NCBI GenBank assembly: GCA_016223045.1
Contig: JACRPT010000145.1
Coordinates: 12,040 to 76,039, forward strand
DNA: 64,000 nucleotides
Direction: 5' to 3'
Origin: Candidatus Eiseniibacteriota bacterium
GTDB taxonomy: Bacteria; Eisenbacteria; RBG-16-71-46
Of the stretch, positions 1,255-28,756 are shown piece by piece. A program made the translations under genes and the position numbers. Each line of letters starts with the position of its first letter. Positions within the stretch are counted from its first letter, which is position 1. The notes under the pieces were generated by a model. That model searched no databases and was not told where the DNA came from. It was given only the letters and a program-made list of their open reading frames with translations.

Positions 1255-1674
1255 CGCCGCCTCCTTGGCAGCACGATTGACGATCCCGGTCCGGATGCAC
1301 GGAGTCCGGTCCCGCAGGACTGCCGGGCCGGCCCCTTTGTCTGTCGCAGGCTACCACCCGGGGACCAGCAATGGCCGTGCCCGACCGGCGCGGGGACACG
1401 CAGACCGCGATCCGCGCCGGTCCGGGAGGCCGTGGGGGTGTCGCCCGATGTCGTCAGGTGTCCACCAATGGACAGAAGTGTCGCCGTACGGACGCCTTTG
1501 CCGACGAATGGACACCCGAGCCGGCTGGTGGACACCGGCGGCGGTGGCTGCCGGGCCTGCGGCTGGCGTCTCGGTGTGCCCGCCGGGCCGGGTGCGGCCT
1601 GCGCGCGGCCCGCGCGCGGCTTGGACGCCCCGCGCGGGCTCGGCTATCCTCGCCCCGTGCGACTCGCCTACCAC

Positions 1675-2235: not shown

Positions 2236-2310
2236 TCCGGCGGACGCGGCGCCGTCCGCCGTCGGCACGCGGACGCCCATCCACCGGCCACTCGAGGAAG
2301 GGGTAGCGCC

Positions 2311-3234
2311 ATGCGCCTCCGCTGCGCTCTCACGACGCTCGTCGCCACCACGCTGGCCGTGACCGCGACCGCCCGCGCCGGGCAGGTGCGGGTCTCGGTC
2401 GTCAACTTCGCGTTCACGCCACGCACGGTGAACTGCAACCTCGGCGACCACGTGGTGTGGGTGTGGCGCGCCAGCAGCCACACCGTGACCAGCGGAGACT
2501 CGTCGGGCCCCACACCCGACGGCCGCTTCAACAGCGGCCTGCTGGCCACCGGCAGCTCCTTCACCTGGAAGAGCGACGCGAGCGGACTCGCCACGTACTA
2601 CTGCGAGCCCCACGCGCCCGGCATGGCGGGGCGGGTCATCGTCGGCGCGGGGATCGCGGTCTCGGACTTCCGCATCACCGAGGTCCTGTTCAACGACGCG
2701 GGCGGGCTCGACCTGGTCGAGATCGCGAACCTGGGGAACGCGGCGGGCGACCTCGGACGCTACCGCATCGTGGTCGGCGCGACCGCGGTCGCCATCCCGC
2801 GCGACACGCTGAGCGTGGGGACGGGTGCTCGCGTGGTCGTCCACTGCAACGCCAGCGGCACCAGCACGCAGACCGACATCTTCCTGCCGACCCTGCCCGC
2901 GCTGCCCGAGCCCGGCTCGGTCGCGCTCTACGCGCCCGACACCGCGCCCGGCCACACCGCGCTCTCCGACGCCACCCAGATCCTCGACTACGTCGAGTGG
3001 GGCGCCGGCGGACAGGCGAACGAGGCCACCGCGGCGACGGCCGCGATCTGGGTGGCGGCGCAGTCCATCAACAACGTGGCCGCGGGGCACTCGATCGAGC
3101 TGTGCGCCGCCGCGCCGCGGAACGCGAGCGCGTGGGCCGAGATCGCCTCGCCCAACTTCGGCTCGAACGGCAACTGCACCACGCCGGCGCGGACCATGAC
3201 CTGGGGGCGGATCAAGACGCTGTACCGGGATTGA
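2311..3234 (+). CDS. Secreted cupredoxin (type-1 blue copper) domain fused to a lamin-tail-domain (LTD)-like domain.
   Basis: Signal peptide MRLRCALTTLVATTLAVTATARA. The copper-ligand motif YYCEPHAPGMAGRV carries the Cys-x2-His-x4-Met ligands. Downstream, FRITEVLFNDAGGLDLVEIANLGNAAGDLGRYRI is typical of LTD domains. Confidence 0.7.
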   Translation: MRLRCALTTLVATTLAVTATARAGQVRVSVVNFAFTPRTVNCNLGDHVVWVWRASSHTVTSGDSSGPTPDGRFNSGLLATGSSFTWKSDASGLATYYCEPHAPGMAGRVIVGAGIAVSDFRITEVLFNDAGGLDLVEIANLGNAAGDLGRYRIVVGATAVAIPRDTLSVGTGARVVVHCNASGTSTQTDIFLPTLPALPEPGSVALYAPDTAPGHTALSDATQILDYVEWGAGGQANEATAATAAIWVAAQSINNVAAGHSIELCAAAPRNASAWAEIASPNFGSNGNCTTPARTMTWGRIKTLYRD

Positions 3235-3385
3235 CGCCTGCACGGCGGGCCCACCGGACCCATCGCAGCGCGGCCGCCGGCGGGGCGCGCGCGACATCCA
3301 GCGGGAGCGGATCGCTCGATGACGCCCCCGTGCCCGGCAGCCCGGCGCGCGAACCGGTCGCGAGGAAGCGGGTGACTCCCCTGCT

Positions 3386-4411
3386 TCAGCGCGCGTCGAA
3401 GTGGTCGAAGCCCGCGCCGGGGAGCGGGCGCATGATCCCGTCGCGGCCGGCGAGGCCGAGCACGCCGGGCGCGCCGGTGAAGCGCCCGACGAAGGCGAGA
3501 GGCACGCCGGCCGCGCGCGCCGCGGCCTCGCAGTCGGCGCGACCGCCCGGCTCCACCGCCAGCAGCAGCTCGTAGTCGTCGCTCGGCCCGCAGCGGAGCG
3601 TCGCGAGCGGCACGCCCAGGCGTTCCGCGGCACGCACGAGCAGCGGGTCGTCGGGCCACGCCGCCTCCTCGACCTCCGCGCCGGTGCCGCTCGCCTCGCA
3701 CAGGTGGGCGAGGTCACCGGCGAAGCCGTCCGAGATGTCGATCGCCGCGGTGACCGCGCCGGTCCCGCGCAGCGCCCGCGCCAGCGCCACGTGCGCATGC
3801 GGCGCGAGCCACGCCTCGAGCAGCGGCTGCCACTCCGGCGCGCGGGCGCCCTCGCCCAGCGCGCGCGCCAGCGCCAGCCCGGCGCCCGCGCGCCCGGGCC
3901 TGCCCGAGACCGCGAGCAGGTCGCCCGGGCGCGCGCCGTAGCGCGTCCACGCGCGGCCGCGCGGCGTCTCGCCGACCAGCGTGAGCGAGTACCACTGCGC
4001 GCCCTCCACGGCGGCGAGATTGCCGCCGACCACCGCCGCACCCTCGGTCGCCAGCGCCGCGGCGAGCCCGGACTGCAGCGCGACCAGCTCGTCGGCGTCG
4101 GTGTCGGGGCGCGCGCCGATCGAGAGCAGCGCCCAGCGCGGGGTCGCCGCCATCGCCGCGAGGTCGCTCAGATTGGCGTGCGCGAGCCGCGCGCCGGTCG
4201 CGGCGGGCGCGCTCCACGCCGGCAGGAAGTGCCGGCCCTCGACGAACGCGTCCGTGGTGACCACGATGTCCGCGCCCGCGCCGGGCCTCAGCACCGCGGC
4301 GTCGTCGCCGGCGCCCACCACCACGTCCGGCTCCGCCGCCGCGTCCGCGCGCCGCGCGCGCTGGAGCCGGCGCAGCACCTCGAACTCGCCCAGCTCACGC
4401 AGGCTGGCCAT
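3386..4411 (-). CDS. thiL: Thiamine-monophosphate kinase ThiL (AIR-synthase-related family).
   Basis: N-terminus GEFEVLRRL...GDDAAVL...VVTTDAFVEGRHF and the mid-region SDLAAMAATP...VVGGNLAAVEG are characteristic of ThiL. Confidence 0.8.
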   Translation of the reverse strand: MASLRELGEFEVLRRLQRARRADAAAEPDVVVGAGDDAAVLRPGAGADIVVTTDAFVEGRHFLPAWSAPAATGARLAHANLSDLAAMAATPRWALLSIGARPDTDADELVALQSGLAAALATEGAAVVGGNLAAVEGAQWYSLTLVGETPRGRAWTRYGARPGDLLAVSGRPGRAGAGLALARALGEGARAPEWQPLLEAWLAPHAHVALARALRGTGAVTAAIDISDGFAGDLAHLCEASGTGAEVEEAAWPDDPLLVRAAERLGVPLATLRCGPSDDYELLLAVEPGGRADCEAAARAAGVPLAFVGRFTGAPGVLGLAGRDGIMRPLPGAGFDHFDAR

Positions 4412-5666
4412 GGCGGCGGTCCCTCCATTCGTGGCGCGACGGGAGAAGCAGCAGGAAGAGCAGCGCCGCGACCAGCGCGAGCGCCGCGTCGGTGGCCAGC
4501 ATGGCGCGCGGTCCGACCCGGTCCCACAGCGCGCCGGCGATGATGCTCGCCGGCAGCAGCGCCGCGCCCACCACGGTGTAGTAGAGCCCGTACGCCGTGC
4601 CGCGGCGGTCGGCGTCCACCAGGTCGCTGATCATGCTGCGCTGCGTGCCCTCGATGAGCGCGCTGTGCACGCCGAGCAGCACGAAGCCGGCGATCATGAA
4701 CGCAGCGCCCGCGTGCCACGCCAGCATGCCGTAGAGCGCGGCGAACAGCAGGTAGGCGGCGAGCAGGATGGGACGCCGCCCGATCCGGTCCGACAGCTCG
4801 CCGAGCGGCCACGAGAGCAGTGCGTAGACCAGGTTGTAGAGCAGGTAGACCAGCGCGACGCGCGCGCCCGAGAAGCCGGCGCCGTGCTTCGGGTCGGCGG
4901 CCAGCAGCAGCAGGAACGCGGTGCTCGAGTTGGCCAGCGAGAACACGCCGGCCGTGACCAGGAAGCGCGCGAAGACCGGGCCCATGGCGCGGGCCTCGCG
5001 ATGGAGCGCGCCCGGCTTCACCCGCGGCTCATGGCGCGGCGCGCGCACGAAGATCCCGAGCACCACCAGCGAGAGCACCGCGGGGATCGCCGAGATCAGG
5101 AAGATGCGCCGGAACTCCCGCGGGAACGCGCGCAGCATCGCGAACGCCACCAGCGGCCCGACGGCCGCGCCCAGCGTGTCGAGCGCGCGATGGAAACCGA
5201 ACGCGCGGCCCAGGTAGCGCGGCTCGACCGAGTCGGCGATCAACGCGTCGCGTGGCGGGTTCCTGAGTCCCTTGCCCACGCGGTCGGAGAAGCGCAGCCC
5301 CAGCACCGCGGACCACGAGGCCGCGACCGCCATGGTGGCCTTCGCCACGGTCGAGAGCCCGTAGCCGAACAGGAGGAACGGCTTCCTTCGCCCGATGCGG
5401 TCCGAGAGCCAGCCCGAGCCGATCCGCAGCAGCGCCGCCGTGCTCTCGGCCACGCCCTCGATGATGCCGAGACTCGACACCGAAGCCTTGAGCGTCGTGG
5501 TCACGAACAGCGGCAGCACCGGGATGATCATCTCGCTCGAGACGTCGGTGAGGAGCGAGACGAAGCCCAGCGCCACCACGTTGCGCGTGATGCCGGGCAG
5601 CCCGCGCGCGGGCGTGGGGCTGGCGGAGGAAGGCGGTGTGACGCTCACGGCGCGGGAAGGTAGCAC
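4395..5666 (-). CDS. MFS transporter (12-TM major facilitator).
   Basis: Hydrophobic TM-rich sequence with MFS motifs (GWLSDRIGRRKPF, ...DRIGRRPIL). GTG start. Its 3' end overlaps the thiL start by 17 nt. Confidence 0.75.
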   Translation of the reverse strand: MLPSRAVSVTPPSSASPTPARGLPGITRNVVALGFVSLLTDVSSEMIIPVLPLFVTTTLKASVSSLGIIEGVAESTAALLRIGSGWLSDRIGRRKPFLLFGYGLSTVAKATMAVAASWSAVLGLRFSDRVGKGLRNPPRDALIADSVEPRYLGRAFGFHRALDTLGAAVGPLVAFAMLRAFPREFRRIFLISAIPAVLSLVVLGIFVRAPRHEPRVKPGALHREARAMGPVFARFLVTAGVFSLANSSTAFLLLLAADPKHGAGFSGARVALVYLLYNLVYALLSWPLGELSDRIGRRPILLAAYLLFAALYGMLAWHAGAAFMIAGFVLLGVHSALIEGTQRSMISDLVDADRRGTAYGLYYTVVGAALLPASIIAGALWDRVGPRAMLATDAALALVAALLFLLLLPSRHEWRDRRHGQPA

Positions 5667-5732
5667 AGCGGGGAGCGCGGGGGCGCTGGTTGAGCAGGCT
5701 GGGATGTCGGTGTTCTGCTGTGCCCGGAGATG

Positions 5733-7763
5733 CTACCGAATCACGACCGCCCGCGCGGCTGCGCTCTCTCTTCCCTGCGTGAGCCGCAGCCAGTACACAC
5801 CCGGCTCCACCCGCGCGCCCTGCGACAGCGCGAACACGTGATGGCCCGGGCCGAGCGCGCCCACCTCGCGCGCGAGCACCCGGCGACCCGTGGCGTCGAA
5901 CAGCTCGAGCGCCGCCCGCTCCGCTCGCGCCAGCGTGAACCCGACCTTGAGATCGCTCCCCGAGGACGGATTCGGCCGCAGCCCGGCGAGCGCGAACCGG
6001 TACCCCGCCGGCACCTCGATCCAGGTCTCGGTGGAGAAGCTCGCCGACCCTCCGCTCCCCAGTACCAGCCGGTAGCCGTAGCGCGTCCCCGCCGCGACCG
6101 TGCGGTCTTCGAAGCGCAGATAGCCTTCGCCGTCGCGCAGCACTGTGCCCGCCCGCTCCCACTCGGACTGCATCGTGCGGCGATAGACCGTGGCCTCGTC
6201 CTGGTTCGAGGCGGCGGCGTACCAGGTGAGCCGCACCGCCTCCGGCTCGGCCTCCGCGCTCACCAGCGCCAGCGCCACCGCCACCGGACCGTCCACCACG
6301 TAGCGCTGCGCGTAGGCGCTCCCCTTCCCATTCCGGACCTCGCTCCACACCACGATCGCCCCGCCCTGGCCGTCGGTGCAGATCCGCGGGTGCTGCTGGT
6401 TCGGATACACCACGTCCGCCACCGGCAATCCCTCCGCCGGCCAGCCCGGCGCCACCTGCCCGCCCGCCGTCAGGTGCTGCACGTACACCTTGATACTGTT
6501 GTAGGCGCTGAAGGCCACGTACACCCCGCCCTGACCGTCGGGGGCGATGCGCGGGTCGTAGAGGTAGTCGTAGAGCGTGCTCACCGGCGTGCCGTTCACC
6601 GGCCAGCCCGGCGCCGGAGTGCCGTCGGCCTGTACCCGCTGCAGGTAGAGTCCCGAGCCGCGGCTGTCCTCCCACGCCACCAGCACCCCGCCCTGGCCGT
6701 CCGCGACCAGGTCCATCGGCTGCTGGGTGCCGTTCACGACTGCGACCGGCAGCCCGTCCGCGGGCCAGCCCGCGGGGAAGCCGCCATCGGGGCGAATGTG
6801 GGCCAGGTAGATGTCGTCGCCGTAGGGCTGGTCGGGTGGCACGTTGCGGAAGTCCGACCAGGCGGCAAAGGCACCGCCGGCGCCGTCCGAACACGCCACC
6901 GGATAGGTCTGCGTGTTTGCCGCCGTGCACACCGGCAGGCCGGCGGCCGGCCAGCCTGGCGCGACCGCTCCATCTCGAGTCCGGCGCAGCGCGTAGATGT
7001 CGGCGCGCGTCTGCGAGAGGTTGCGGCCGTCCACCCAGGTGACCATCACGCCGCCCGAATCATCCGCCACCGCCAGCGGGATTGACTTGTAGCCGGGGAA
7101 CTCGCAGAACACCCGGCCCGGCGCAGGCCAGCCGGCGGCAAACTGGCCGTCGCTGGTGATCCGCGCCGCCCGCACGTCGGGCGTGCTCCCGGAGTACCTC
7201 TCATAGACCACATAGGCACCGCCCGCGCCGTCGGCGCAGATGCGCGCTTCTCGCTCGTCATTGATGCTCCCGGCCACGATCAATCCGTCCGACGGCCAGC
7301 CCGGGGCGATCAACCCGTCGGACCGAACATGCTGAAGGAGGACGTCGATCCCGGTGGGTGGGAGGGTGCTGTCAATAACCAGGAAGCCCCCTCCCTGTCC
7401 GTCAGGAGCAAGCCCGAGCAGGAAGTCATCGAACCCCCGTCCGGCGGCGCGGAGGCCCGAGGCTGGCCAGCCCGGGGCGATGGCCCCCGAGCCGGTGACC
7501 CGCTGGGCGTAGATGTCCACATCATTCAGATTCCTGAAGTCCCGCCACGCAACGAATGCTCCGCCCTGGCTGTCCGGAATCACCTGCGACTCACCCCCGC
7601 AGCCGGGACATGTGTCGCTTACGGACACGCCGTTTGGGATCCAGTTGGCCTCCGCCGCCGCCGGGAGCGACAGAGGAAGCGAGGCTCCGAGCAGCAGCAC
7701 AGCCGCCACGGGCGCGCGCCCCCTGTTCACGCCGGGACGACTTTGTTCGGCCCTATCGAACAT
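5733..7763 (-). CDS. Secreted beta-propeller-like tandem-repeat protein with a C-terminal FlgD-Ig/T9SS-type sorting domain.
   Basis: At least seven ~50-aa repeats follow the pattern DGxGG(a)(Y/V)VAWxDxR....DIYaQR(V)..DG..APGWPxxGxPV. The C-terminus LRPNPSSGSDLKVGFTL...ELFDATGRRV...GPGHHVF...GVYWLRLTQG matches FlgD-Ig/Por-secretion C-terminal domains. The start was moved to the ATG at 7763 (signal peptide, purine-rich RBS) from the track's TTG at 7826. Confidence 0.65.
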   Translation of the reverse strand: MFDRAEQSRPGVNRGRAPVAAVLLLGASLPLSLPAAAEANWIPNGVSVSDTCPGCGGESQVIPDSQGGAFVAWRDFRNLNDVDIYAQRVTGSGAIAPGWPASGLRAAGRGFDDFLLGLAPDGQGGGFLVIDSTLPPTGIDVLLQHVRSDGLIAPGWPSDGLIVAGSINDEREARICADGAGGAYVVYERYSGSTPDVRAARITSDGQFAAGWPAPGRVFCEFPGYKSIPLAVADDSGGVMVTWVDGRNLSQTRADIYALRRTRDGAVAPGWPAAGLPVCTAANTQTYPVACSDGAGGAFAAWSDFRNVPPDQPYGDDIYLAHIRPDGGFPAGWPADGLPVAVVNGTQQPMDLVADGQGGVLVAWEDSRGSGLYLQRVQADGTPAPGWPVNGTPVSTLYDYLYDPRIAPDGQGGVYVAFSAYNSIKVYVQHLTAGGQVAPGWPAEGLPVADVVYPNQQHPRICTDGQGGAIVVWSEVRNGKGSAYAQRYVVDGPVAVALALVSAEAEPEAVRLTWYAAASNQDEATVYRRTMQSEWERAGTVLRDGEGYLRFEDRTVAAGTRYGYRLVLGSGGSASFSTETWIEVPAGYRFALAGLRPNPSSGSDLKVGFTLARAERAALELFDATGRRVLAREVGALGPGHHVFALSQGARVEPGVYWLRLTQGRESAAARAVVIR

Positions 7764-7910
7764 CGCCCACCCCCGATTCAGATTCGTCTTGATATTGGAA
7801 CGACCGGATGCTACCAAGCCCCGCAAGGTTGTCCGCGTCGTTTGCCTTCTACACGGGCGCCAGGGCCGCCGGGCCGCACGGGACGTATCTCGCCACCACG
7901 GAGGTCCACC

Positions 7911-10900
7911 ATGCGCTCAGCGATACCCGGCACGGGGGAACCGGCCGCCGCTCTCGGCCACACGGTCCAGCGCTTCCTGCTGCTCGTCTGCCTTCTGACG
8001 CTGCTTCCCCCGTCGGCGATTCCATCTCCGCCGCAGCCCCACCATCCGGGCAAGTGGACCGGCACCGTCAGCTGGGGCAATGCCGCGGTCCACCTGGTGC
8101 TGCTGCCGGGCGATTCCACCCACAGCAGCGTGCTGTGGTGGCGCGGCGACGAGCCGGCCGGTCGGTTCGGCGGTCTGTGGCGCTGGGAACCGCCGAACGA
8201 CGCGTCGGTCAATGCCGGCAACTACCCCACGTCGAGCTTCACCGACCGTCCGCTGCCGGAGCCGCCCTACGACATCTTCTGCGCCGGCCACGCCCATCTC
8301 CGCGACGGGCGGATCCTGATCGCGGGCGGGCACGAGACCGGCCGGTCCGAGACCGGCTCCGACTCGTCGGTGATCTTCAACCCGAAGAGCCTCGTTTCCC
8401 CCTGGCAGGTGCAGCCGAAGCTGGCCTACCGGCGCTGGTATCCGACCACCACGGTGCTGGCCAGCGGCGAGGTGCTGACCCTCTCCGGCACCCAGTACCA
8501 GCACCTGGACGTGTTCGGCGGCTTCGATGCAGCCGGGCAGACCAGCGACTCGCTGCGCCGGTTCGGGATCGCGAACCACACCGACTGGGACGCGGCGGTG
8601 AAGCCGGACGAGGACCCGTACGCGCCGTCGCCGCCACGCCGCCCGGACGCGCTCGAGGGGCTGACCATGGTGGATGGCTACGGGACCGGGGCCTACGAGC
8701 TGGTCTACGGCGGGCGCCGGGCCACCGGCGGAGGCCAGTACGCGTATTCCGACCTCCTCTGGTTCCTCTACAAGAACCCCAACGAGGGCGCGCCGGACTA
8801 CCAGTACGGGTGGCGGAAGTGGATGAACCAGAGCGCTGACAGACCCGATCCGTGCGCCTTCCACGCGGCGGTGAAGCTGGACAACGGGGACCTGGTGGTG
8901 ATCGGCGGGCTGAAGGAGTTTCAGGGAGTCGTCACCGTCAGCAGCGAAGTCTGGTACGGGAAGCTGGACCCCTCGGACAACGTTTGGAAGTGGAACCACG
9001 TCTACTCGACGACGGCCGACTCGCTCGGCCCACGCTACGCGCACGAGGCGGTCTATGACAGCGCGCTGAAGCGCATCTTCGTCTTCGGCGGCGCGAGCAC
9101 CCAGGGCAGCGATCCCGCCGATGCCGACGTGTGGTCCCTGAGCACCGACCCGCCGCTGAGCGGGAAGACCACCCGCTGGATCCGCTGCGCGGCCGTGAAT
9201 GGCGAGCGCCCGAATCCCCGCGTGCAGCACAGCCTCGCCATGGACGCCCGGCGCCGGAAGAACGCGACCGAGGGCGAGCGCCTCCGCGCCCTGCTCTACG
9301 GCGGCCGCAGGAGCTGGTCAGCCGCGCCCTTCAGCGACACTCTGTGGGTGGCCTGGTTCAAGGACAGCGCCACCGTGGAGTGGCAGCGCCAGACCACGCC
9401 CGCGGCCGGGCCGGGGAAGCGCGCCCGCCACGCCGGCGTGATGCATCCCTACAGCGATCGCTTCTTCATCGCCGGCGGCGACCTGTCGGGGCTCGCGCTC
9501 CCCGACAGCGCCGTGTGGGTGGGCTCGACCTACTGCACCACCTGCGACAACGCCCCGGTGAGCTGGTCGCAGGCGCCCTCGATGGTGCGCGGGCGCGCCG
9601 GCCACCGCGCGGGCGCTGTGGTCTCCGACGTGATCGCCCGCGTGCCCGAGGTGTTCGATCCCGGCAGCGGCACCACCGGGAGCTGGACCACCCACGCGCA
9701 GTCGCCGCGCCTCCAGGACTGGTACCCGTTCATGTTCCAGCTCCCGGCCGCGGTCGCGGGAGGCAGCAGGAAGGTGTTCTTCGCCGGCCCCGAGGACTCC
9801 TCGTTCGTGCTCGACCTGGGCGCGAGCCCTGCCGCGTGGAGCCCGTTCCCGGCCAATGCCAACGCCACCTTCGGCAAGCGGGGCGGCTCGGGCGTGATGT
9901 ACCGGATCGGCAAGGTGATGAAGTCGGGCTCGCGCGACACCGAGCTGCCCCCGCAGTTCGCCACCGACACCACGATGTCCGTGGACCTCGGCGAGTCCGG
10001 TCCGAGCTGGAAGCTCTCGGTCAACGACATGGGGTTCCGGCGCGTGAACCACGACCTGGTGCTGCTGCCGACCGGCGAGGTGCTCACCACCGGCGGCACG
10101 CGCTGGGTGGACAACACCGCGAACCAGGACCCCAACCACCAGCCCGAGCTGTGGAACCCCGATTACACCGACCCCGGCGCCCCGGACCGGCGCGGCTACT
10201 GGTACGGCACCAGTGGCCCGATCGTGCTCGACTCGACCAGCGCCACCCGCGGCTACCACAACAACGCGTTGCTCATGCCCGACGGCCGGGTGCTGTGCGC
10301 CAGCGGCTCCTTCGACGGCGGCCTGTGGTCCTACACGGCCGACCTCTACAGCCCGCCCTACCTGTTCAACAGCGACGGCACCACCCGCACGCGCTCGGCG
10401 ATCCTGGGGACCAGGGGCCGGCTCGCCCACGGGGACACCTTCTCGGTGGTGGTGGACAGCACCAACGTGAGCTTCGTGCTGCTGCGCGCCGGCTCCAGCA
10501 CCCACGGCTTCGATCAGGACCAGCGCTACCTGCCGCTCGCCGACTACTATGCCAGCCCGCCGCTCACCACCCCGCCGCGCCGGACGCTGCGCATCCCCGC
10601 GGCCGCCGACTCGCTGCCGCCCGGGCCTTACCTGCTGTTCGCGGTCAAGCCCTGGGGCACGCCTTCCATCGCGCGCTGGCTGATGATCGGCAGCCCGCCG
10701 GCGGATGACGACTGGGGGGACCGCACCCGGCCCGGGCTGGTGGGGAACCTGAGCAAGGTCTTCCTCTGCCCGGACTACCAGATCCGCTGGACCGCCCCGG
10801 CCGACGACAGCACCTGGCGGGTGACCGGCCGGGCGGTGAGCTACGACCTGCGCTACGCCAACAGCCCCATCAACACCTGGACCGACTTCCAGAACGCGAC

Positions 10901-12317
10901 GCCGGTGAGCGACGTGCCTGCGCCGGCCGACCAGGGCACGTTCCAGAGCGTGAACGTCTCGCTCGACCCCGGGCTCCACTACTACTTCCGGCTGGTGAGC
11001 TACGACGACCACGTGGCGCCGGCGAACCGCTCGCTGCTCAGCAACGACCTCAGCTTCATCGCTCTGGGCTGCGACGGCGCACTGTACGGCGGCAGCGGCA
11101 GCGGCGGCCGCGGGGCCTCCTTGCAATCCGCCGGCCGGCTGGGGCCGAGCGCGCTGCAGCAGCAGGGCAGCGGCTTCGCCGAGAACTCGCTGCTCCCCGG
11201 CCAGCCCGCAGAGACGACCGCGACCGACCTGCTGCGCCTGGAGGCCGCCCCGCAGCTCGCCGACGGCCGCTACCAGGTCCACCTGCGCCGCGGCGTCACG
11301 GGCTCCTCGCGACTCGACCGGGTGCGCCTCGTCGCGCTCGATCGCTCCGGCGCGGGCACCGCCTTTGTGCTCCCGGGCAGGGCCCTGCTGGGAGCGCCGC
11401 TGGCGGCGGCCAGCGTCACGCGAGCCGACCGCACCGACCTCACCGCTCAGGCCACCGGCGGCGATGTCGGCGCGTACCAGGCCGCGGCCGGCGAGACGCT
11501 GCTCGTCAGCCTGCCGCTGGCGGAAGGTGAGTCAGCGGCCGACCTGGCTGCCCGCCCGCTGCTGCTGCGCGCCGTGGACGGCGCCCCGCAGAGCGACCCG
11601 GCCTCGATCGGCATCCTGATCCAGGTGCCGGACGGTGCCGGCGGCTGGCGCACGGTTGCCCATCGGGCCGCGCGCCAGCGCTTCGCCGAGCTGCCGGTGG
11701 ACTCGATCGGCAGCGCCACGGTGCGCCTGGTGTTCCTGAGCGATCAGGCGGTGAGCTTCGTGGGGCGGATCGGACCCGCGAGCGGCACGCTCGCCACGCA
11801 GGCGATGTCCCCCGCGACGGCGCAGCACTCGCGACTCGGAGCGCTCGATCCCGCCGCACTCGTGGCGGGCGGGGCCGGCGTCACGCTGGCCGCCCAGGAC
11901 ACGCTCGTGCTCGGGTTCGACGCCGGCACCCCCGCCGCCGGCGACACCCGCGACTGGTACCTGGAGGTCACCGGCGAGCACCTGGCGGGGCCATCGCAGA
12001 GTCAGCAGCGCCTCGCGCCGCGAGCGGAAGGCCTGCCCCGGACCTTCGCCCTCGGCCAGAACCGGCCCAACCCGTTCACCGGGACGACCACCATCCACTT
12101 CGACCTGCCCGTGGCCGCGCGGGTGCGCCTCGAGGTGTTCGACCTGCAGGGCCGCCGCGTGCGCCGGCTCCTGGACGCGCAGCTCGAAGCCGGGCGCCAT
12201 CAGGCCGACTGGGACCGCCGCGGCGCCGAGGGGACTCTCCTCCCCGCGGGCGTCTACCTCTGCCGCATGCAGGCCGGCACCTTCCACGACGAGAGGACCA
12301 TGGTCGTCTTCCCGTAG
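7911..12317 (+). CDS. Giant (1469 aa) secreted galactose-oxidase/glyoxal-oxidase-like radical copper oxidase: expanded Kelch propeller + DUF1929 + FN3-like + FlgD-Ig/T9SS-type C-terminal domain.
   Basis: DIFCAGHAHLRDGRILIAGGH corresponds to the Cys228 thioether region of galactose oxidase. RGYHNNALLMPDGRVLCASGS corresponds to the Tyr495-His496 copper ligands. RAGSSTHGFDQDQRYLPL corresponds to the DUF1929 His581 region. The C-terminus NRPNPFTGTTTIHFDL...VFDLQGRRV...AGVYLCRMQAG is a FlgD-Ig sorting domain. The start was moved to the ATG at 7911 (GGAGG RBS), because the 5' part of the track ORF overlaps the divergent gene. Confidence 0.75.
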   Translation: MRSAIPGTGEPAAALGHTVQRFLLLVCLLTLLPPSAIPSPPQPHHPGKWTGTVSWGNAAVHLVLLPGDSTHSSVLWWRGDEPAGRFGGLWRWEPPNDASVNAGNYPTSSFTDRPLPEPPYDIFCAGHAHLRDGRILIAGGHETGRSETGSDSSVIFNPKSLVSPWQVQPKLAYRRWYPTTTVLASGEVLTLSGTQYQHLDVFGGFDAAGQTSDSLRRFGIANHTDWDAAVKPDEDPYAPSPPRRPDALEGLTMVDGYGTGAYELVYGGRRATGGGQYAYSDLLWFLYKNPNEGAPDYQYGWRKWMNQSADRPDPCAFHAAVKLDNGDLVVIGGLKEFQGVVTVSSEVWYGKLDPSDNVWKWNHVYSTTADSLGPRYAHEAVYDSALKRIFVFGGASTQGSDPADADVWSLSTDPPLSGKTTRWIRCAAVNGERPNPRVQHSLAMDARRRKNATEGERLRALLYGGRRSWSAAPFSDTLWVAWFKDSATVEWQRQTTPAAGPGKRARHAGVMHPYSDRFFIAGGDLSGLALPDSAVWVGSTYCTTCDNAPVSWSQAPSMVRGRAGHRAGAVVSDVIARVPEVFDPGSGTTGSWTTHAQSPRLQDWYPFMFQLPAAVAGGSRKVFFAGPEDSSFVLDLGASPAAWSPFPANANATFGKRGGSGVMYRIGKVMKSGSRDTELPPQFATDTTMSVDLGESGPSWKLSVNDMGFRRVNHDLVLLPTGEVLTTGGTRWVDNTANQDPNHQPELWNPDYTDPGAPDRRGYWYGTSGPIVLDSTSATRGYHNNALLMPDGRVLCASGSFDGGLWSYTADLYSPPYLFNSDGTTRTRSAILGTRGRLAHGDTFSVVVDSTNVSFVLLRAGSSTHGFDQDQRYLPLADYYASPPLTTPPRRTLRIPAAADSLPPGPYLLFAVKPWGTPSIARWLMIGSPPADDDWGDRTRPGLVGNLSKVFLCPDYQIRWTAPADDSTWRVTGRAVSYDLRYANSPINTWTDFQNATPVSDVPAPADQGTFQSVNVSLDPGLHYYFRLVSYDDHVAPANRSLLSNDLSFIALGCDGALYGGSGSGGRGASLQSAGRLGPSALQQQGSGFAENSLLPGQPAETTATDLLRLEAAPQLADGRYQVHLRRGVTGSSRLDRVRLVALDRSGAGTAFVLPGRALLGAPLAAASVTRADRTDLTAQATGGDVGAYQAAAGETLLVSLPLAEGESAADLAARPLLLRAVDGAPQSDPASIGILIQVPDGAGGWRTVAHRAARQRFAELPVDSIGSATVRLVFLSDQAVSFVGRIGPASGTLATQAMSPATAQHSRLGALDPAALVAGGAGVTLAAQDTLVLGFDAGTPAAGDTRDWYLEVTGEHLAGPSQSQQRLAPRAEGLPRTFALGQNRPNPFTGTTTIHFDLPVAARVRLEVFDLQGRRVRRLLDAQLEAGRHQADWDRRGAEGTLLPAGVYLCRMQAGTFHDERTMVVFP

Positions 12318-12459
12318 GGACCTCACGGCGGGTGACGCTGGCCGTGCGTCGAGAGAATCCCGGCGCTGGCGACCGTCCTCTCGCTGAGCCGGCAGGAAGA
12401 GCGACGAGGCGACCGCCCCAGCACAGGGGCGGTCGCCTCGATTCCACTTGCCTGCTACA

Positions 12460-15054
12460 TCACCTGACCAGCGCCGCCTTCGCGCTCACCGCGCGGCCGC
12501 CCTGCGTGAGGCGCACGACGTACATGCCGGCCGGCATCACCGCCGCGCCGCTCAGGCGCACCAGGTGGTTGCCGGCGCCGAGCGTGCCGACTTCGCGGCG
12601 GAACACGCGCCGCCCGCCCACGTCCATCACCTCGAGCCACGCGGGTGAGGCGCCGGGAAGCGAGAACGCGACCAGCGCCTCGCCGGGCGCCGGGTTCGGA
12701 CGGAAGCCCCGGAGTGCGAGCGCGAGCGTGGCCGGTACGTCCACCCACACCTCGCCCGCCGGCGTCTCGCCCGAGCCGCCGGACACGCCGAGCCGGTAGC
12801 CGTAGCGGCGGCCGGCCACGACGTCGCGGTCCACGAACCGCAGCATGCCGCTGCCGTCCACGCCGGCGCGGCCGAGCACGGCCCAGTCACCGCCCTCCTC
12901 GCGCCGATAGACGTTCGCCTCGCCGCCGGGCACGCTCACGTACCACGCCAGCTCGACGCGATCCGGCTCGGCGCGCGCGCTGACCAGCGAGGCGAGCGCG
13001 GCGGTGGTGCGGTCGAGCTGCAGCACCCACGAGTCGTCCATGCGCCAGCAGCAACCGTCGTTGATCACCAGCCGGTAGCGCTCGAGGTCGAAGCCGCCCG
13101 CCAGGTCGAAGCGACCGGGCGGGACCGTCGTGCCGACGGCGAGCAGCTTCCAGACCGGGGCGCCGTTGAGCTCGAGCGCGTAGGTGTCGCTGGTGCCGCT
13201 GTAGCCTCCGGTATCGCCGCCGTAGACCAGCATGCGGTGGCCGAGCGAGTCGTACGCCGCGACCGCGCCGCGGCGCGGCGTGGGAAGAGTGCCGGTGGGC
13301 GCGAGCTGGGTCCACGGCGGCGTGCCCGACAGCGCCAGCTCCCACAGCTCGTCCAGCGGGCCCGAGTTGTCGCCGCCGAAGATCAGCATGCGGTCGTTGA
13401 TCGGGTCGTAGATCGCCGCGCTCTTCGCGCGCGGGCCCGGCGGCGTGCCGAGCGGAACGATCTCGCTCCAGGTCGGGCTGCCGGAGAGGTCGAGCGCCCA
13501 CCCGTCGTTGCCCGGCCCGCCCCAGCCGCCGAAGACCAGCATCCGGTCGCGCGTCGCGTCGTAGACCATGCTGCATTCCATGCGCGAGGGCGGCACCGGC
13601 CCGGCGGGCGCGAGCTGGCTCCACACCGGCGCGCCTGCGAGCGCGAGCGCCCATACCCCGCTCGGCGAGGACACGCTGTCGCTGCCCCCGTAGAGCAGCA
13701 TGCGGGCGCGCACCGGGTCGTAGAGCAGCCGATGGCCCCAGCGAATCCCAGGCAGGCTGCCGGTGGGCGCCAGATCGCTCCACGTGGGAGAGCCCCCGAG
13801 CGCGAGCGCCCAGGTGTCGCCGAGAACGCTGGCGCCCGTCATGCCGCCGTAGATCACCAGGCGGTTGCGCGGCGGGTCGTAGATCCCCGCGTGCTGGTTG
13901 CGCGGCTCCGGCCGGCGCGTTCCCAGCTCGCTCCAGCGCACCGTGTCGCCGAGCGCGAGCGCCATCACCAGGTCCGGCGGCGCGGTGCCCATGGTGTCCT
14001 GGCCGCCGTAGAGGACCATGCGCTGGCGCGGCGCGTCGAAGATCCCGCTCGCGTCCCCCCGCGTGGCGGGCGGTGTGCCGAGCGGAACCAGCTCGGTCCA
14101 TGCGGGCGCTGCCAGATCGAGCGCCCACACGTCGTTGAGGTTGCCGCCGGTCGCGGGATCGCTGATGCCGGTCGAGATCACCATGCGGTCGTTCGCCCGG
14201 TCGTAGACCGTGACGCCGACGGCGCGCGCGGGCGGCGGCCCGCCGGAAGGCGCGAGCAGGGTCCAGGCCGGGCTCGCGCCCAGCGTCATCTGCCAGACGT
14301 CGCCCAGCATGACGCCGTTGTAGCCGCCGTAGACCACCATGCGGTCGCGCGCGGGGTCCACGATCGTCATCTGCCCGGCGATCGAGTCGGGCGAGACGCC
14401 GGTCGGGAGCAGCTCGGTCCAGGTGGGCGTGACGCCGAGCGTCAGCTCCCAGACGTCGGAGAGCAGGCCGGTGGGCGGCCCGTTGGCGCCCGGCACCTGC
14501 GCGCCGCCGTGGACGATGAGGCGGTTGCGCAGCGAGTCGTAGACCGCCGACTGGTAGACGCGCGCGGCGGGCAGCCCGCCGGCCGGCGCGAGCTGCTGCC
14601 AGGCGAGCGGCAGCACGCCCAGCGGCAGGACCCAGACGTCGTTGTAGGAGGTGGTGGAGTCGGACGCGCCGGCGAAGACGACCAGGCGGTCGAGCGCCGG
14701 GTCGTAGATCGTCGAGGGGCCCCAGCGGGCGGCCGGCCTGGTCCCGGTGACCGCCAGCAGCGACCACGCCGGCGACCCGGCCAGCCCGAACTCCCACACG
14801 TCGTTGGTGGGCGACATGCTCGTGCCGCCGAAGACCAGCATGCGCTGGCGCACCGGGTCGAAGATCGCGCCGTGCTGGTTCAGGGCCGGCGGCGGCAGCT
14901 GGTACCAGTAGCCGTCGTCCGAGGCGCTGGCCCGGGACGCGGCGGGCGACCTGCCGGAGACCCACGCGAGAGAACTCGAGACGGAGACGAGAAGGAAGAG
15001 GAGACCGGACAGGACCGCGCCGATCCTCGGCGCTGCGTTGCGGAGGCATCGCAT
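12460..15054 (-). CDS. Secreted multi-blade Kelch-repeat beta-propeller protein with a FlgD-Ig/T9SS-type C-terminal domain.
   Basis: About 12 repeats of the form GG.....NDVW.L.L.G.P.W..L.P.G..P..R......YD....R.(L/M)..FGG. The C-terminus reads LRGFRPNPAPGEALVAFSL...EVMDVGGRRV...GAGNHLV...GMYVVRLTQGG. Start set at the ATG at 15054 (MRCLRNAAP..., GGGAGGG RBS). Confidence 0.7.
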   Translation of the reverse strand: MRCLRNAAPRIGAVLSGLLFLLVSVSSSLAWVSGRSPAASRASASDDGYWYQLPPPALNQHGAIFDPVRQRMLVFGGTSMSPTNDVWEFGLAGSPAWSLLAVTGTRPAARWGPSTIYDPALDRLVVFAGASDSTTSYNDVWVLPLGVLPLAWQQLAPAGGLPAARVYQSAVYDSLRNRLIVHGGAQVPGANGPPTGLLSDVWELTLGVTPTWTELLPTGVSPDSIAGQMTIVDPARDRMVVYGGYNGVMLGDVWQMTLGASPAWTLLAPSGGPPPARAVGVTVYDRANDRMVISTGISDPATGGNLNDVWALDLAAPAWTELVPLGTPPATRGDASGIFDAPRQRMVLYGGQDTMGTAPPDLVMALALGDTVRWSELGTRRPEPRNQHAGIYDPPRNRLVIYGGMTGASVLGDTWALALGGSPTWSDLAPTGSLPGIRWGHRLLYDPVRARMLLYGGSDSVSSPSGVWALALAGAPVWSQLAPAGPVPPSRMECSMVYDATRDRMLVFGGWGGPGNDGWALDLSGSPTWSEIVPLGTPPGPRAKSAAIYDPINDRMLIFGGDNSGPLDELWELALSGTPPWTQLAPTGTLPTPRRGAVAAYDSLGHRMLVYGGDTGGYSGTSDTYALELNGAPVWKLLAVGTTVPPGRFDLAGGFDLERYRLVINDGCCWRMDDSWVLQLDRTTAALASLVSARAEPDRVELAWYVSVPGGEANVYRREEGGDWAVLGRAGVDGSGMLRFVDRDVVAGRRYGYRLGVSGGSGETPAGEVWVDVPATLALALRGFRPNPAPGEALVAFSLPGASPAWLEVMDVGGRRVFRREVGTLGAGNHLVRLSGAAVMPAGMYVVRLTQGGRAVSAKAALVR

Positions 15055-15354
15055 GAGGAAACCCTCCCTAGGTTTCCGAGGGAAGCGCACTGCGCCGCGT
15101 CCCTCGAGTCTGGCGTGCAACTGTGCTGCGGATACCGTGGGGTTGAAGCGCGGTCAAGGTAGACCGTGCGGCAGCGGCGGTCAACGAGACAGCCCGGGCC
15201 CGCCGCGCTGTTCACTGCGGTAGGCCCGCCACAGCGGTCCCCCGCACATGCGCTGGTACGAAGGATCGGCCCGGGCCATTCGCCGGCCGCGCCGCGCGCC
15301 GCGGCAGACCGCGATCGGCCCGCGTTCCCAGCAGCGGCCGGCGCACCGTCCCGA

Positions 15355-16752
15355 CTACTCCATCTCCTTCACCTCGATCGGGCCGAGGCCCGCGAGCGAC
15401 TCCTGCGCGGTCTTCGGGTTCGAGACCACCAGCAGCTTCAAGTCGTCGGTGCAGAAGCGCTCCTTCAGGACGCGCTTCACGTCGGCCATCGTCACGCCCT
15501 CGACACGGCTGGTGTAGGTCTCGATGAAGTCCGGCGGGAGGCCGTAGAACTCCACCGTCGCGAGCTGGGCCGCCAGCGCGTCGGGCGCCTGCAGCCCGAG
15601 CGGGTACTGGCCGGTCAGGTAGCGCCTGGCCTTCGCCAGCTCCTGCTCGGTCGGGCCCTGGTCCACCAGCTGCTTCACCACGCCGAGGGTCGCGTCCACC
15701 GCCTTCCGCAGCTTCTCGTTGCGCGTGAACGTGCTGATGGTGAACGTGCCGGCGTTGCGGTACATGCCCCAGCGGCTCGAGATGCCGTAGGTGAGGCCCT
15801 GGTTGACGCGGATCTCGTTCACCAGCCGCGAGGTGAACCCGCCGCCCAGGATGGTGTTCGCGACCGTGATGGCGAAGTAGTCGGGGTGGTTGCGGGGCAC
15901 CCCGCCGCACGCCAGCCGGATCTGGCTCTGCGTGACCTCGGGCTTGCTCACGATGAGCACCCTGCGCCCGCCGTCGCGCGGGAGCGGCGCGTAGGCGTCG
16001 GCCGGCTTCTCGCCCGAGGGCTTCCAGTCGGAGAACGCCTTCCCGAGCGCGGCGAGTACGGCCTTCGCGTCCACGTCGCCCACCACGGCGAGGATGCAGC
16101 GATCGGGCACGAGGAAGCGTTTGTGGAACGCGACCGCGTCGTCGCGCGTGAGCGCCCCGACCGTCCGGGCGTAGCCGATCACCGGGTGGGCGAGCGGGCT
16201 CTCCCCCATCAGGAACGGGCCCAGCTCGTTGTTCGCGACCGTGCCCGGATCGTCCTTCTGCGCGGCGATCGCGCCCAGCGTCTCGCTCTGCTTGCGCTTG
16301 AACTCCGCCTCCGGGAAGGTGGGCTGCACGATCACGTCGTGGAACATCCCGAGCCCGGTGGCGAAGTCCTTACCGAGCACTTCGCAGGTCACCACCGCCT
16401 GCTCGATCGAGGCCGTGGCGTCGAGCGCGCCGCCCACGAAGGCGATGTCCTCGGCGATCTGGCGCGCATCGCGCCGGCCCGCGCCCTGCGTGAGCAGCTC
16501 GGCGGTGAGGCCGGCGAGCCCTTCCCTGCCGGCCGGGTCGTTCACCGCGCCCGCGCGCGCCACCAGCCGGAACTCCACCAGCGGGAGCCGGCGGGCCGGC
16601 ATCACGATCACGGTGAGCCCGTTCTCGAACGTGGTCTTCGTGTGCGCCGGCAGCCGGAACGTGGCGGCGCCCGCCGGCGCGGCGAACGCCGCGGCACAGG
16701 CGGCCAGCAGGAGCCGGCGGAACATCGGGCGTGCTTTCCGGGCGGAGGTCAT
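15355..16752 (-). CDS. M16-family (pitrilysin/insulinase-like) peptidase subunit lacking the HxxEH motif; probable non-catalytic partner.
   Basis: M16 fold signature and signal peptide (MTSARKARPMFRRLLLAACAAAFAAPAGA), but no HxxEH zinc motif. Its start ATG overlaps the upstream M16 stop as ATGA. Confidence 0.7.
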   Translation of the reverse strand: MTSARKARPMFRRLLLAACAAAFAAPAGAATFRLPAHTKTTFENGLTVIVMPARRLPLVEFRLVARAGAVNDPAGREGLAGLTAELLTQGAGRRDARQIAEDIAFVGGALDATASIEQAVVTCEVLGKDFATGLGMFHDVIVQPTFPEAEFKRKQSETLGAIAAQKDDPGTVANNELGPFLMGESPLAHPVIGYARTVGALTRDDAVAFHKRFLVPDRCILAVVGDVDAKAVLAALGKAFSDWKPSGEKPADAYAPLPRDGGRRVLIVSKPEVTQSQIRLACGGVPRNHPDYFAITVANTILGGGFTSRLVNEIRVNQGLTYGISSRWGMYRNAGTFTISTFTRNEKLRKAVDATLGVVKQLVDQGPTEQELAKARRYLTGQYPLGLQAPDALAAQLATVEFYGLPPDFIETYTSRVEGVTMADVKRVLKERFCTDDLKLLVVSNPKTAQESLAGLGPIEVKEME

Positions 16753-18140
16753 GGCGTCACCTCCGCCGCGTCGCCTTCCTTCTCGGGGACCAGGCTGACG
16801 ACGGTGCGCTTCGTGGGGTCGAAGACCTGCTTCGCGACGCGCCGGCAGTCTTCGGCCGTGACCGCGCGCACCTTCGCGAGCTGATCGAACATGGCGCGCC
16901 AGTCGCCGAGCACATGCTCGTAGTAGCCGATCTGCGAGCCCATCCCGTTGTTCGTCTTCATGCGCCTGACGAATCCCGCCTCGATCAGGTTCTTCGCCTT
17001 CTCGAGCTCGCGCGCCGACGGCCCTTCCTTCGCGAGCCGGTCGAGCACTTCGTAGACCGCGGCTTCGCCGTCGGCCGCCGCCCTGCCGGGCTTGAGCTCG
17101 ACGTAGACTTCGAACAGGCCCGGGTCGAGATGAGTCTGGAAGCTCGCCGACGCGCCGAGCGCGATCTGCTTCTCGTAGACCAGGGCCTGGTGGAGCCGCG
17201 ACGACTCGCCGGCCGACAGGATGCGCTCGAGCACGTCGAGCGTCGCCAGGTCCGCGCTCTTCACGCCCGGCGCCTTGTAGCCCATGTCCACCGAGACGTT
17301 CTGCGCCGGGTAGTGGACCTCCGCGCGCCGCTCGCCCTTCTGCTCCGGCTCGCCGACGATCGGCTCGGGCGGCGCGGGCTGGCGCGGGATGCCGCCGAAA
17401 TAGGCCCGGATGCTGTCGAGCGCCGCCCTGGTCTCGAAGTCGCCCACCAGCACCAGGATGCAGTTGTCGGGCGCGTAGTGGATGCGGAAATACTCGACCA
17501 TGTCGTCGCGCGTGATCGCGTTCAGGTCCGCCATCCAGCCGATCACCGGCCAGTGGTACGGCGCCTGGTCGAACGCGCTGGCGTAGAGCTGCTCGTCGAG
17601 CATCCCCTGGATGTCGTTGTCGGTGCGCAGCCGGCGCTCCTCCTTGACCACCTCGATCTCGCTCCTGAGCTGATCGGGCAGCAGCGAGAGCGCCGCCATG
17701 CGGTCGGAGTCGAGGCGCAGCACCACGCCCAGCCGGTCGGAAGCGATGTCCTCGTAGTACGCCGTCATGTCGCGGTCGGTGAAGGCGTTCGAGTAGCCGC
17801 CGTTCGACTCGAGGATGCGGTCGTACTCCTTGGGCGGGACGTCCTTCGAGCCGTTGAACATCATGTGCTCGAAGAAGTGCGAGATCCCGGTGATGCCCGG
17901 CCGCTCGTTGCGCGAGCCCACCCGGTACCACTGCCAGAACGTGATGGTCGGCACCGAGTGGTCCTCGTGCGTGAGGACGACCAGGCCGTTGTCGAGCACG
18001 TGGCGCTCGACCTGCAGCAGGTCGGGCGTGAACGCGGGCGCCGCGGGCGCCGGCGTCGCGGGCTTGCCCGCCGCGAGCGCCGGCGATGCGGCCGCGAGCG
18101 CCAGCGCGAGCGCGAACGCTGCGCGCGATGCGAGTCTCAT
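16749..18140 (-). CDS. M16-family zinc metallopeptidase, catalytic subunit.
   Basis: Inverzincin motif HFFEHMMFNGS (HxxEH) plus a downstream E. Signal peptide present. Confidence 0.8.
   Translation of the reverse strand: MRLASRAAFALALALAAASPALAAGKPATPAPAAPAFTPDLLQVERHVLDNGLVVLTHEDHSVPTITFWQWYRVGSRNERPGITGISHFFEHMMFNGSKDVPPKEYDRILESNGGYSNAFTDRDMTAYYEDIASDRLGVVLRLDSDRMAALSLLPDQLRSEIEVVKEERRLRTDNDIQGMLDEQLYASAFDQAPYHWPVIGWMADLNAITRDDMVEYFRIHYAPDNCILVLVGDFETRAALDSIRAYFGGIPRQPAPPEPIVGEPEQKGERRAEVHYPAQNVSVDMGYKAPGVKSADLATLDVLERILSAGESSRLHQALVYEKQIALGASASFQTHLDPGLFEVYVELKPGRAAADGEAAVYEVLDRLAKEGPSARELEKAKNLIEAGFVRRMKTNNGMGSQIGYYEHVLGDWRAMFDQLAKVRAVTAEDCRRVAKQVFDPTKRTVVSLVPEKEGDAAEVTP

Positions 18141-27904: not shown

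Positions 27905-28756
<852 letters not shown>

Follow-up and report, generated by a model that had tools for sequence, protein, structure and literature searches.

A conserved pairing of a galactose oxidase-like protein with an eight-bladed propeller protein in Candidatus Eisenbacteria, encoded beside a Kelch-repeat neighbor

In a 64,000-nucleotide stretch of DNA (the window) from a metagenome-assembled genome (MAG) of Candidatus Eisenbacteria, three neighboring genes, here called A, B, and C, encode propeller-type proteins that end in a common C-terminal sorting domain (CTD). Our comparisons indicate that these are probably three separately transcribed cargo genes, of which A and B constitute a conserved unit of an oxidase-like protein and a propeller partner, and C is a bystander. 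Conserved divergent adjacency and co-diversification, both read from genome sequences, strongly suggest that A and B are functionally linked. The three genes are as follows.

5733..7763, minus strand: gene A, 676 aa (NCBI: 658 aa, HZC42_13915, "hypothetical protein")
7911..12317, plus strand: gene B, 1468 aa (NCBI: "DUF1929 domain-containing protein")
12460..15054, minus strand: gene C, 864 aa (NCBI: "T9SS type A sorting domain-containing protein," T9SS being the type IX secretion system)

The window, with a G+C content of ~72%, is part of an 87,475-bp contig (locus tags HZC42_) of an uncultured soil bacterium. NCBI taxonomy files the Eiseniibacteriota under "Bacteria candidate phyla" and not in the Fibrobacterota-Chlorobiota-Bacteroidota (FCB) group, to which, we presume, they belong. 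All three open reading frames (ORFs) were found where the initial annotation had placed them, and their third-position G+C of 0.86 to 0.94, the coding signature of this genome, confirmed them. Its description of the products as giant proved apt for B only, not for A or C (even less so for A at the length called by NCBI), and its view that all three are propeller-type proteins was borne out, with eight blades in a structural model of A, a galactose oxidase (GO)-like architecture with Kelch repeats in B, and 12 Kelch repeats in C. Since the genes are oriented minus, plus, minus, such that A and B are divergent and B and C are convergent, they represent three separate transcription units and not an operon.

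A scan of species-representative genomes with a profile of B yielded 79 loci. Around 33 of these, labelled Eisenbacteria or unclassified, contain B of the long type, which includes both a CTD and a Kelch insertion. In the remaining 46, from Gemmatimonadales, Thermoleophilia, Acidobacteriota, Nitrospira, and others, the GO-like genes are short, and among them we found no Kelch insertion, no CTD (0 CTD-bearing ORFs in 520 kb), and no A neighbor. Adjacency of A and B was counted over the loci in which the B gene scored >590 bits against the B profile and the upstream DNA was present (n = 22). At 21 of the 22, an A-family gene is located directly upstream of B, on the opposite strand; at the one exception, L009, the A-family gene and B are separated by a transposase gene of the Mutator family (PF00872, 834-2177, plus strand), the sole interruption encountered. 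Similarly, on five metagenomic contigs encoding B proteins 30 to 47% identical to that of the window, the gene directly upstream, again divergent, encodes a protein 37 to 48% identical to A, and the other neighbors all differ. Apart from A and B, no gene in the first 25 kb of the window had a homologue in the B-centered loci (L001 to L087), and no extra A-family genes were found in the flanks of the A-B loci.

The two genes also share their history. Pairwise identities among A proteins and among B proteins, compared as matrices for 18 pairs, were correlated (r = 0.76; Mantel p ~2e-4), and two pairs that come from a single genome (L026 and L040) fall into distinct lineages for both genes, from which we conclude that A-B pairs diversified as units. 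The DNA that separates A from B contains the following elements.

7764..7910, no strand: A-B intergenic region, 147 bp, divergent (read from the sequence)
Inside 7787-7817, A-B spacer: promoter-like element TTGATA-N17-TACCAA
7900-7913, plus strand, A-B spacer: Shine-Dalgarno and start context of B, GGAGGTCCACC-ATG

Among the 19 pairs aligned, 144 to 340 nt separate the N-terminal ends of the aligned A and B proteins, and a TTGACA-like box and GGAGGyCGCC-ATG recur, suggesting that the spacer might harbor a promoter; a scan of 5500-15400 with a strict sigma-70 consensus gave no promoter match. The start context is unusually uniform among B orthologues, reading GGAGG(C/T)(C/G/T)GCC-(A/G)TG (window 7900-7913; B starts in L001 to L043), and this speaks for B indeed starting at 7911.

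The proposal that B is a galactose oxidase-like protein stood up to comparison of its sequence, fold, and active site. Its Pfam matches are Kelch, Glyoxal_oxid_N (PF07250, weak), and the GO-like E-set (PF09118, 61 bits against a cutoff of 25), and a phmmer search of the PDB gave galactose oxidases 9g8h and 9g43 as best matches (E = 5e-30), the latter being a bacterial enzyme from Pseudoarthrobacter siccitolerans. In that search, residues 40-194 of B align to GO residues 146-279, and residues 616-926 align to GO residues 330-616. An AlphaFold2 model of residues 1-930 (predicted local distance difference test [pLDDT] score, 82; predicted template modeling [pTM] score, 0.85) matched 1gof, 9g43, and 4unm in Foldseek at E ~1e-27, both galactose oxidases and GlxA being matched in fold. 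The features of B are listed below; equivalences to GO residues come from the alignment to 9g8h, with the codons checked.

8280..8282, plus strand: Cys124 (GO Cys228), thioether partner
8439..8441, plus strand: Tyr177 (GO Tyr272), radical site and Cu ligand
8493..9755, plus strand: Kelch insertion within the catalytic propeller, residues 195-615 (~420 aa)
10254..10259, plus strand: Tyr782-His783 (GO Tyr495-His496), axial Tyr and Cu ligand
10416..10688, plus strand: GO-like E-set (DUF1929), residues 836-926, PF09118
10503..10505, plus strand: His865 (GO His581), Cu ligand
10689..12065, plus strand: Fn3-like segment (~940-1050) and ~330 residues without detectable family
12066..12314, plus strand: C-terminal sorting domain (FlgD_ig above its gathering score, TIGR04183 just under its cutoff, profile matches to RgpB and PorU CTDs)

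All five GO active-site residues are thus present in B, forming a complete first sphere; the roles of first-sphere residues in the copper-radical site have been described (PMC11611005). The five are invariant in 6 B orthologues and in 23 diverse GO-like proteins, and 31 Eisenbacterial B-type ORFs retain them; three variant cases were seen (L015, L023, and L033). On the strength of these residues, B is a plausible active copper-radical oxidase. In the GlxA equivalog test (NF052501), B scored 90.4 bits against a cutoff of 800 and is therefore not GlxA but only resembles it.

The Kelch insertion sets B apart. Match PF24681 spans residues 318-546, inside the insertion, and Foldseek separately matched the model to 6-bladed Kelch domains (target TM-score [TMt] of 0.82 for SAKe6 and 0.70 for KLHDC2), such that the model would place a 6-bladed Kelch domain, nested, within the catalytic propeller. 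No such insertion was found in fungal or other bacterial GO-like proteins, and it had no match in the loci of other phyla. Downstream of the E-set, residues 931-1383 gave no Pfam match at E <= 10; B orthologues have PF16656 or PF00041 in this segment, and the region is conserved in some, not all, B-type loci.

The partner, A, is organized as follows.

7647..7763, minus strand: signal peptide, residues 1-39, ending AAAEA/NW (read by eye from the sequence)
6294..7643, minus strand: propeller, residues 41-490 (95-homologue consensus, repeat positions, and DSSP blades)
6009..6272, minus strand: Fn3-like domain, residues 498-585, common to C and the BNR-type partners described below
5736..5993, minus strand: C-terminal sorting domain, residues 591-676, seven-stranded and Ig-like in the model

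Aligning 95 homologues revealed eight repeats of ~55 aa in the propeller, with the consensus DGxGGAxVxWxDxR-x5-DxYxQRV-x3-G-x2-APGWP, and the AlphaFold2 model built on this alignment (mean pLDDT, 91) has eight four-stranded blades, with a low-pLDDT helix at residues 18-32 in the signal-peptide region. The Fn3-like domain weakly matches the Fn3-like protein 3mpc (E = 0.29) and is a sandwich in the model. For the propeller itself, no Pfam match at E <= 10 and no NCBIfam model was found, and a profile search of the PDB with A gave nothing significant, leaving it without a sequence-related solved structure. We also considered A as a BNR/Asp-box propeller and rejected the assignment, as it has neither the Asp-box motif S-x-D-x-G-x-T-W nor a BNR_2 Pfam match at E <= 10. 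The A family is very large: at a threshold of E <= 1e-3 it comprises 12,130 representatives of 50%-identity clusters, of which 4,061 remain at E <= 1e-30. Among its members are multi-propeller proteins of 4,000 to 5,500 residues, in which as many as 11 stretches matched.

Lower-scoring paralogues of B (396 to 562 bits) occur without A and include a second subfamily of Kelch-inserted oxidases. At eight of these loci (L017, L021, L028, L030, L031, L034, L037, and L038), the oxidase gene instead has a co-directional neighbor encoding a BNR/Asp-box protein of 800 to 980 aa with the same CTD, and at several of the eight the partner ORF overlaps the oxidase ORF. Homology between the BNR-type partners and the A family is confined to the C-terminal part, from the final one or two blades through the Fn3-like domain to the CTD (hhalign probability, 99.6%). 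To judge from these gene neighborhoods, an oxidase plus a propeller partner looks like a general rule in the phylum, with two types of partner.

No such relationship was observed for C. In agreement with the ~12 blades initially ascribed to C, its Kelch repeats number exactly 12 (residues 44-680, located with a hidden Markov model [HMM] made from its own repeats), and the Fn3-like domain and the CTD follow them; its Pfam matches are PF24681 (390 bits) and PF13415 (149 bits). It belongs to a family of more than 1216 homologues, including a paralogue, HZC42_00265, in the same MAG, and the two homologues whose surroundings were examined are solitary among housekeeping genes. A C-like gene next to B was found at none of the 21 other loci of the closest B-type genes. 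Moreover, CTD-bearing genes are dense in Eisenbacteria, with 82 ORFs in 502 kb of B- and A-centered loci, which makes a third CTD gene next door unremarkable. We conclude that C is an unrelated cargo protein and a neighbor by chance; the linkage originally proposed for all three genes is retained for the A-B pair and dropped for C. One element is located between the convergent genes B and C.

12408..12437, no strand: GC-rich hairpin GGCGACCGCCCC-AGCACA-GGGGCGGTCGCC (read from the sequence)

This hairpin might terminate transcription on both strands. It lacks a T-run, and a terminator scan of 5500-15400 returned a single terminator-like site, inside B, and not this one.

The three proteins have in common their C-termini. 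As had been noted, A, B, and C end in a related domain of ~85 aa: in pairwise BLASTP, the tails of A and B are 37% identical over 79 aa (E = 7e-7), those of B and C are 39% identical over 84 aa (E = 3e-10), and those of A and C are 46% identical over 187 aa (E = 6e-40), the last of which reflects a longer cassette, Fn3-like domain plus CTD, common to A and C. Scores against TIGR04183 (cutoff, 23) were 23.3 bits for A, 22.3 for B, and 26.2 for C, and FlgD_ig (PF13860; gathering score, 27) gave 30.9 bits for B and 17.7 for A; with TIGR04183, two tails are above the cutoff and that of B lies just under it, and with PF13860, B is above the gathering score and A is below it. An HMM of the three tails found no fourth copy in a six-frame translation of the window. 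When a profile of 33 A- and B-type tails was compared with the PDB, it matched the CTD of RgpB (5hfs, 5.5e-5), Arg-gingipain (7pq4, 1.1e-4), 5ag9/5ag8 (6-7e-4), and the C-terminus of PorU (6za2, 0.016), substantiating the proposed homology to validated T9SS type A CTDs. Seven strands are present at residues 591-675 of the A model; the 3+4 sandwich of the T9SS CTD has been described (PMC11285876).

At their other ends, A, B, and C each have an n-region, an h-region, and an AxA-type site, which we read by eye as signal peptides. In related loci, the same tail ends unrelated enzymes, namely, GH43, S8 subtilase, and C25 peptidases, and its presence on unrelated signal-peptide proteins, always at the extreme C-terminus, is the behavior of a sorting tag. 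The C25 peptidases with a matching CTD, recovered through similarity to the B tail, are weakly PorU-like, scoring 36 to 88 bits against a PorU cutoff of 420. A, B, and C are, by these sequence matches, most likely T9SS-type cargo, and ordinary as such. Several FCB phyla other than Bacteroidota may possess a T9SS (PMC11285876).

We envisage that A, B, and C would be exported by Sec and then cross the outer membrane by a T9SS-like route, to be released or surface anchored. B would be a copper-binding enzyme in which a thioether comes to join Cys124 and Tyr177 and which oxidizes a primary alcohol, probably on a carbohydrate, to the aldehyde, with production of H2O2. A would act with B outside the cell, most likely by binding or processing the same polymeric substrate or, alternatively, as an activator of B or a protein that docks to it. 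Propellers of the BNR/sialidase-like type typically act on glycans, and the existence of a BNR-type alternative partner favors a glycan-side role for A.

Several observations weigh against this picture. Regarding A, searches of Pfam (E <= 10), the PDB, and folds revealed no recognizable catalytic, ligand-binding, heme, metal, or redox motif, its fold matches are only generic 8-bladed propellers, and its role in the pair is a guess. The A-B loci share ancestry, and the 21 adjacent ones are not independent events, although a single recent inheritance of the adjacency is contradicted by B identities of only 30 to 54% and by the unrelated flanks. Three A-family genes away from B (L006 to L008) have no oxidase beside them, from which it follows that the A family is not dedicated to B; A is 41 to 45% identical to solitary A-family proteins and 35 to 48% identical to the B-linked ones, identities in which no clearly separate B-linked subfamily is evident. 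In the closest relative (L091; A 76% identical, at 1605-3524), the position of B is occupied by an ORF of 134 aa (940-1344, minus strand) in which the signal peptide and first ~55 residues of B are fused directly to a CTD 74% identical to that of B. This stub reflects either an in-frame deletion of ~4 kb, with loss of the oxidase body, or misassembly, and it implies that A can persist without B unless the contig is misassembled. As for C, one lower-scoring B paralogue (L027) is preceded, 66 bp upstream and co-directionally, by a C-like 12-Kelch gene, such that a C-B relationship is dismissed, but not absolutely. Regarding secretion, the TIGR04183 scores fall on either side of the cutoff, Por_Secre_tail (PF18962) scores below its own in B (17.5 against 27), and the 33-tail profile matches the Ig-like domain of FlgD (7eh9, 3.7e-5) at least as well as it matches T9SS CTDs. 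Finally, no T9SS components were found among the genes of the window, Pfam scans of ~40 of the ~50 other predicted genes returning housekeeping functions only, and a literature search found no paper linking Eisenbacteria with T9SS.

How far these points favor other explanations differs from case to case. The initial idea that A, B, and C together make up one surface-attached oxidative or polymer-modifying complex would account for the sorting domain on all three, for the cassette shared by A and C, for the Kelch-type nature of the B insertion, which resembles C, and for the arrangement at L027. We nevertheless consider it highly improbable, as synteny largely refutes it: C converges on B, is without a counterpart at any of the 21 further loci where the closest B-type genes lie, and belongs to a large, multicopy family with solitary members in a phylum dense in CTD genes. 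Very little credence is likewise due to pure coincidence, according to which all three genes are unrelated, A and B included, and cluster simply because CTD-cargo genes abound and are often neighbors. While the density of CTD ORFs, the size and dispersal of the A and C families, the solitary A genes, and the locus that keeps A with a mere stub of B all speak in its favor, coincidence would not produce direct divergent adjacency at 21 of 22 loci at which every other neighbor is different, flanks devoid of other A-family genes, co-diversification that extends to paralogous pairs within one genome, or a second B subfamily with propeller partners of its own.

Two further explanations accept the A-B pair or the shared tail and read them differently. 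A might be a maturation or activation factor for B, for instance a periplasmic or surface scaffold that serves copper loading, Cys-Tyr cross-linking, or re-oxidation of the inactive semi-reduced enzyme, much as peroxidases activate fungal copper-radical oxidases. The tight one-to-one pairing and co-diversification would suit such a factor, copper-radical oxidases require an activating oxidation step (PMC11611005), and precedents are reported in a co-secreted alcohol oxidase/peroxidase pair (PMC9770985) and in the activation of copper-radical oxidases by peroxidase (PMC12951238). However, A lacks heme, metal, or redox motifs and any Pfam match; its thousands of relatives, giants of 4,000 to 5,500 residues among them, and the three examined members without an oxidase fit a general binding module better; and the alternative partner is a BNR/sialidase-like propeller. 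We therefore regard an activating role as unlikely. We are similarly doubtful that the CTD, instead of being a secretion signal, is an Ig-like domain of the FlgD type with an adhesive or structural role, in which case the proteins would be periplasmic or exported otherwise. The above-threshold PF13860 score of B, the 7eh9 match, the still putative T9SS machinery, and the placement of the phylum by NCBI outside the FCB group point that way. In the other direction, the domain always sits at the extreme C-terminus of unrelated signal-peptide proteins (oxidases and propellers as well as the enzymes named above), GO-like genes of other phyla lack it, the 33-tail profile matched RgpB and PorU CTDs about as well as FlgD, and C25 peptidases carry a matching tail. 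Hence, a conserved oxidase-propeller unit of T9SS-type cargo, with C as a bystander, is the explanation that we retain.

During inspection of the B-type loci, we observed homopolymer tracts. G/C runs of at least 9 nt numbered 9 in the 12.9 kb near B-type starts and 0 in the other 474 kb of the Eisenbacterial loci, and all lie within ~200 nt of a B-type oxidase start.

Homopolymer runs: L013 5912-5923, L014 90-111, L024 5761-5772, L025 752-763
Homopolymer runs: L034 5959-5970, L037 5962-5972, L038 8-23, L043 5981-5989

Some tracts (G12) follow the TTGACA box in the A-B spacer, others (C11 to C16) are within the first oxidase codons, and tract length varies between homologous loci. Three are near contig ends and possibly artefacts, and the A-B spacer of the window has no G/C tract of this kind. 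In sequence, the poly-G/C tracts look like sites of slipped-strand phase variation. Quite tentatively, we speculate that Eisenbacteria might possess a lineage-specific, duplicated two-component extracellular system, consisting of a Kelch-inserted oxidase and an APGWP or BNR partner, in which the partner would bind or trim a surface or environmental glycan and the oxidase would oxidize it, and which would be phase variable in several lineages through poly-G/C at the shared promoter or at the oxidase start. If true, this would be a natural counterpart of laboratory labelling with neuraminidase plus galactose oxidase.

Neither T9SS-type cargo nor bacterial GO-like oxidases are new, and C carries a T9SS cargo annotation already; three adjacent CTD proteins, as first stated, are ordinary, and nothing found here overturns current knowledge. 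Three things appear to be new, as far as our literature search reached: the conservation of an oxidase and a propeller as a pair, an oxidase architecture with a Kelch insertion, and the size of the unannotated A family. The natural roles of bacterial copper-radical oxidases are poorly understood, GlxA being the only one with a biological context in PMC11611005, and a partner gene linked across more than 20 genomes provides a testable handle on the natural substrate of B-type oxidases and on enzyme activation. The A family, with its ~12,000 cluster representatives and no Pfam or NCBIfam model, gains a first functional association. The findings also place T9SS-type tags at high density outside Bacteroidota, in Candidatus Eisenbacteria, and offer, in the Kelch-inserted oxidase scaffold and its partner, possible new biocatalyst material.

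Elsewhere in the window, the following genes were recognized.

2311-3234, plus strand: plastocyanin/azurin-like secreted copper protein with a lamin-tail-like domain, ending ...TWGRIKTLYRD, no CTD
15355-18140, minus strand: two adjacent secreted M16 (insulinase-like) peptidase genes, directly beyond C and on the same strand
18343-23293, minus strand: CapC-like and Mur-ligase (CapB-like) genes, then three genes for signal-peptide proteins without Pfam match (18343-21478), same strand
27186-35007, minus strand: phosphate-uptake cluster with PhoU, PstB-like ABC ATPase, and PstS-like binding protein, the last two genes separated by two ORFs
40792-49178, plus strand: dnaA, dnaN, dciA, gyrB, and gyrA in a row, with a 196-aa ORF without assignment between gyrB and gyrA

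The plastocyanin-like gene is two genes from the A-B pair. A copper link between its product and B was considered and rejected, as the gene had no homologue in any related locus. The CapC- and CapB-like genes suggest, by their sequence, poly-gamma-glutamate synthesis. The phosphate cluster is followed by a 493-aa ORF without assignment and a PAS/HAMP histidine kinase. The dnaA-gyrA stretch is probably the region of the chromosomal replication origin; G+C dips to 0.66 to 0.67 from ~40 to 46 kb of the window.

Compared with known systems, A, B, and C resemble the T9SS type A cargo of Bacteroidota, such as RgpB of Porphyromonas gingivalis, in combining a Sec signal with a seven-stranded, Ig-like CTD of ~80 residues on unrelated enzymes. 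They differ in their host, Candidatus Eisenbacteria, and in TIGR04183 scores that lie at the cutoff. The tails of A, B, and C end in hydrophobic residues followed by R or P; the P. gingivalis CTD has a Lys-rich end. The propeller of A can be set beside generic 8-bladed propellers (BamB, the WD40 protein TBL1XR1, CylK, and the designed Ika8), to which it is only ~10 to 17% identical, and it differs from WD40 and BNR/Asp-box propellers in having neither WD nor canonical Asp-box motifs.

B shares with galactose oxidases of family AA5 (GalOx of Fusarium graminearum and the P. siccitolerans enzyme, 9g43/9g8h), its best matches in both sequence and fold, a seven-blade Kelch-type catalytic propeller with E-set and an identical set of Cys-Tyr pair, axial Tyr, and two His. 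Unlike these enzymes, it has a Kelch domain of ~420 residues, probably 6-bladed, inserted after the Tyr177 strand, no CBM32, Gln195/Tyr196 at the position of the stacking Trp290, and ~540 extra C-terminal residues (Fn3-like, a domain without assigned family, and the CTD). The fungal co-secreted alcohol oxidase-peroxidase pair ("tandem metalloenzymes"; PMC9770985) parallels A-B, as reported, in joining a copper-radical oxidase to one dedicated co-secreted partner; there, the partner is a heme peroxidase, whereas A has no peroxidase or redox features. GlxA of Streptomyces, a membrane-associated radical copper oxidase, belongs with B among the bacterial GO-like oxidases; the two have their copper ligands in common, their folds match, and GlxA likewise has an extra domain in the propeller (PMC11611005). 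It is coupled in the genome to the glycan synthase CslA. GlxA thus works with neighboring genes on an extracellular glycan, whereas the partner of B is a secreted propeller and not a synthase, and the two also differ in anchoring, B carrying a CTD and GlxA being associated with the membrane.

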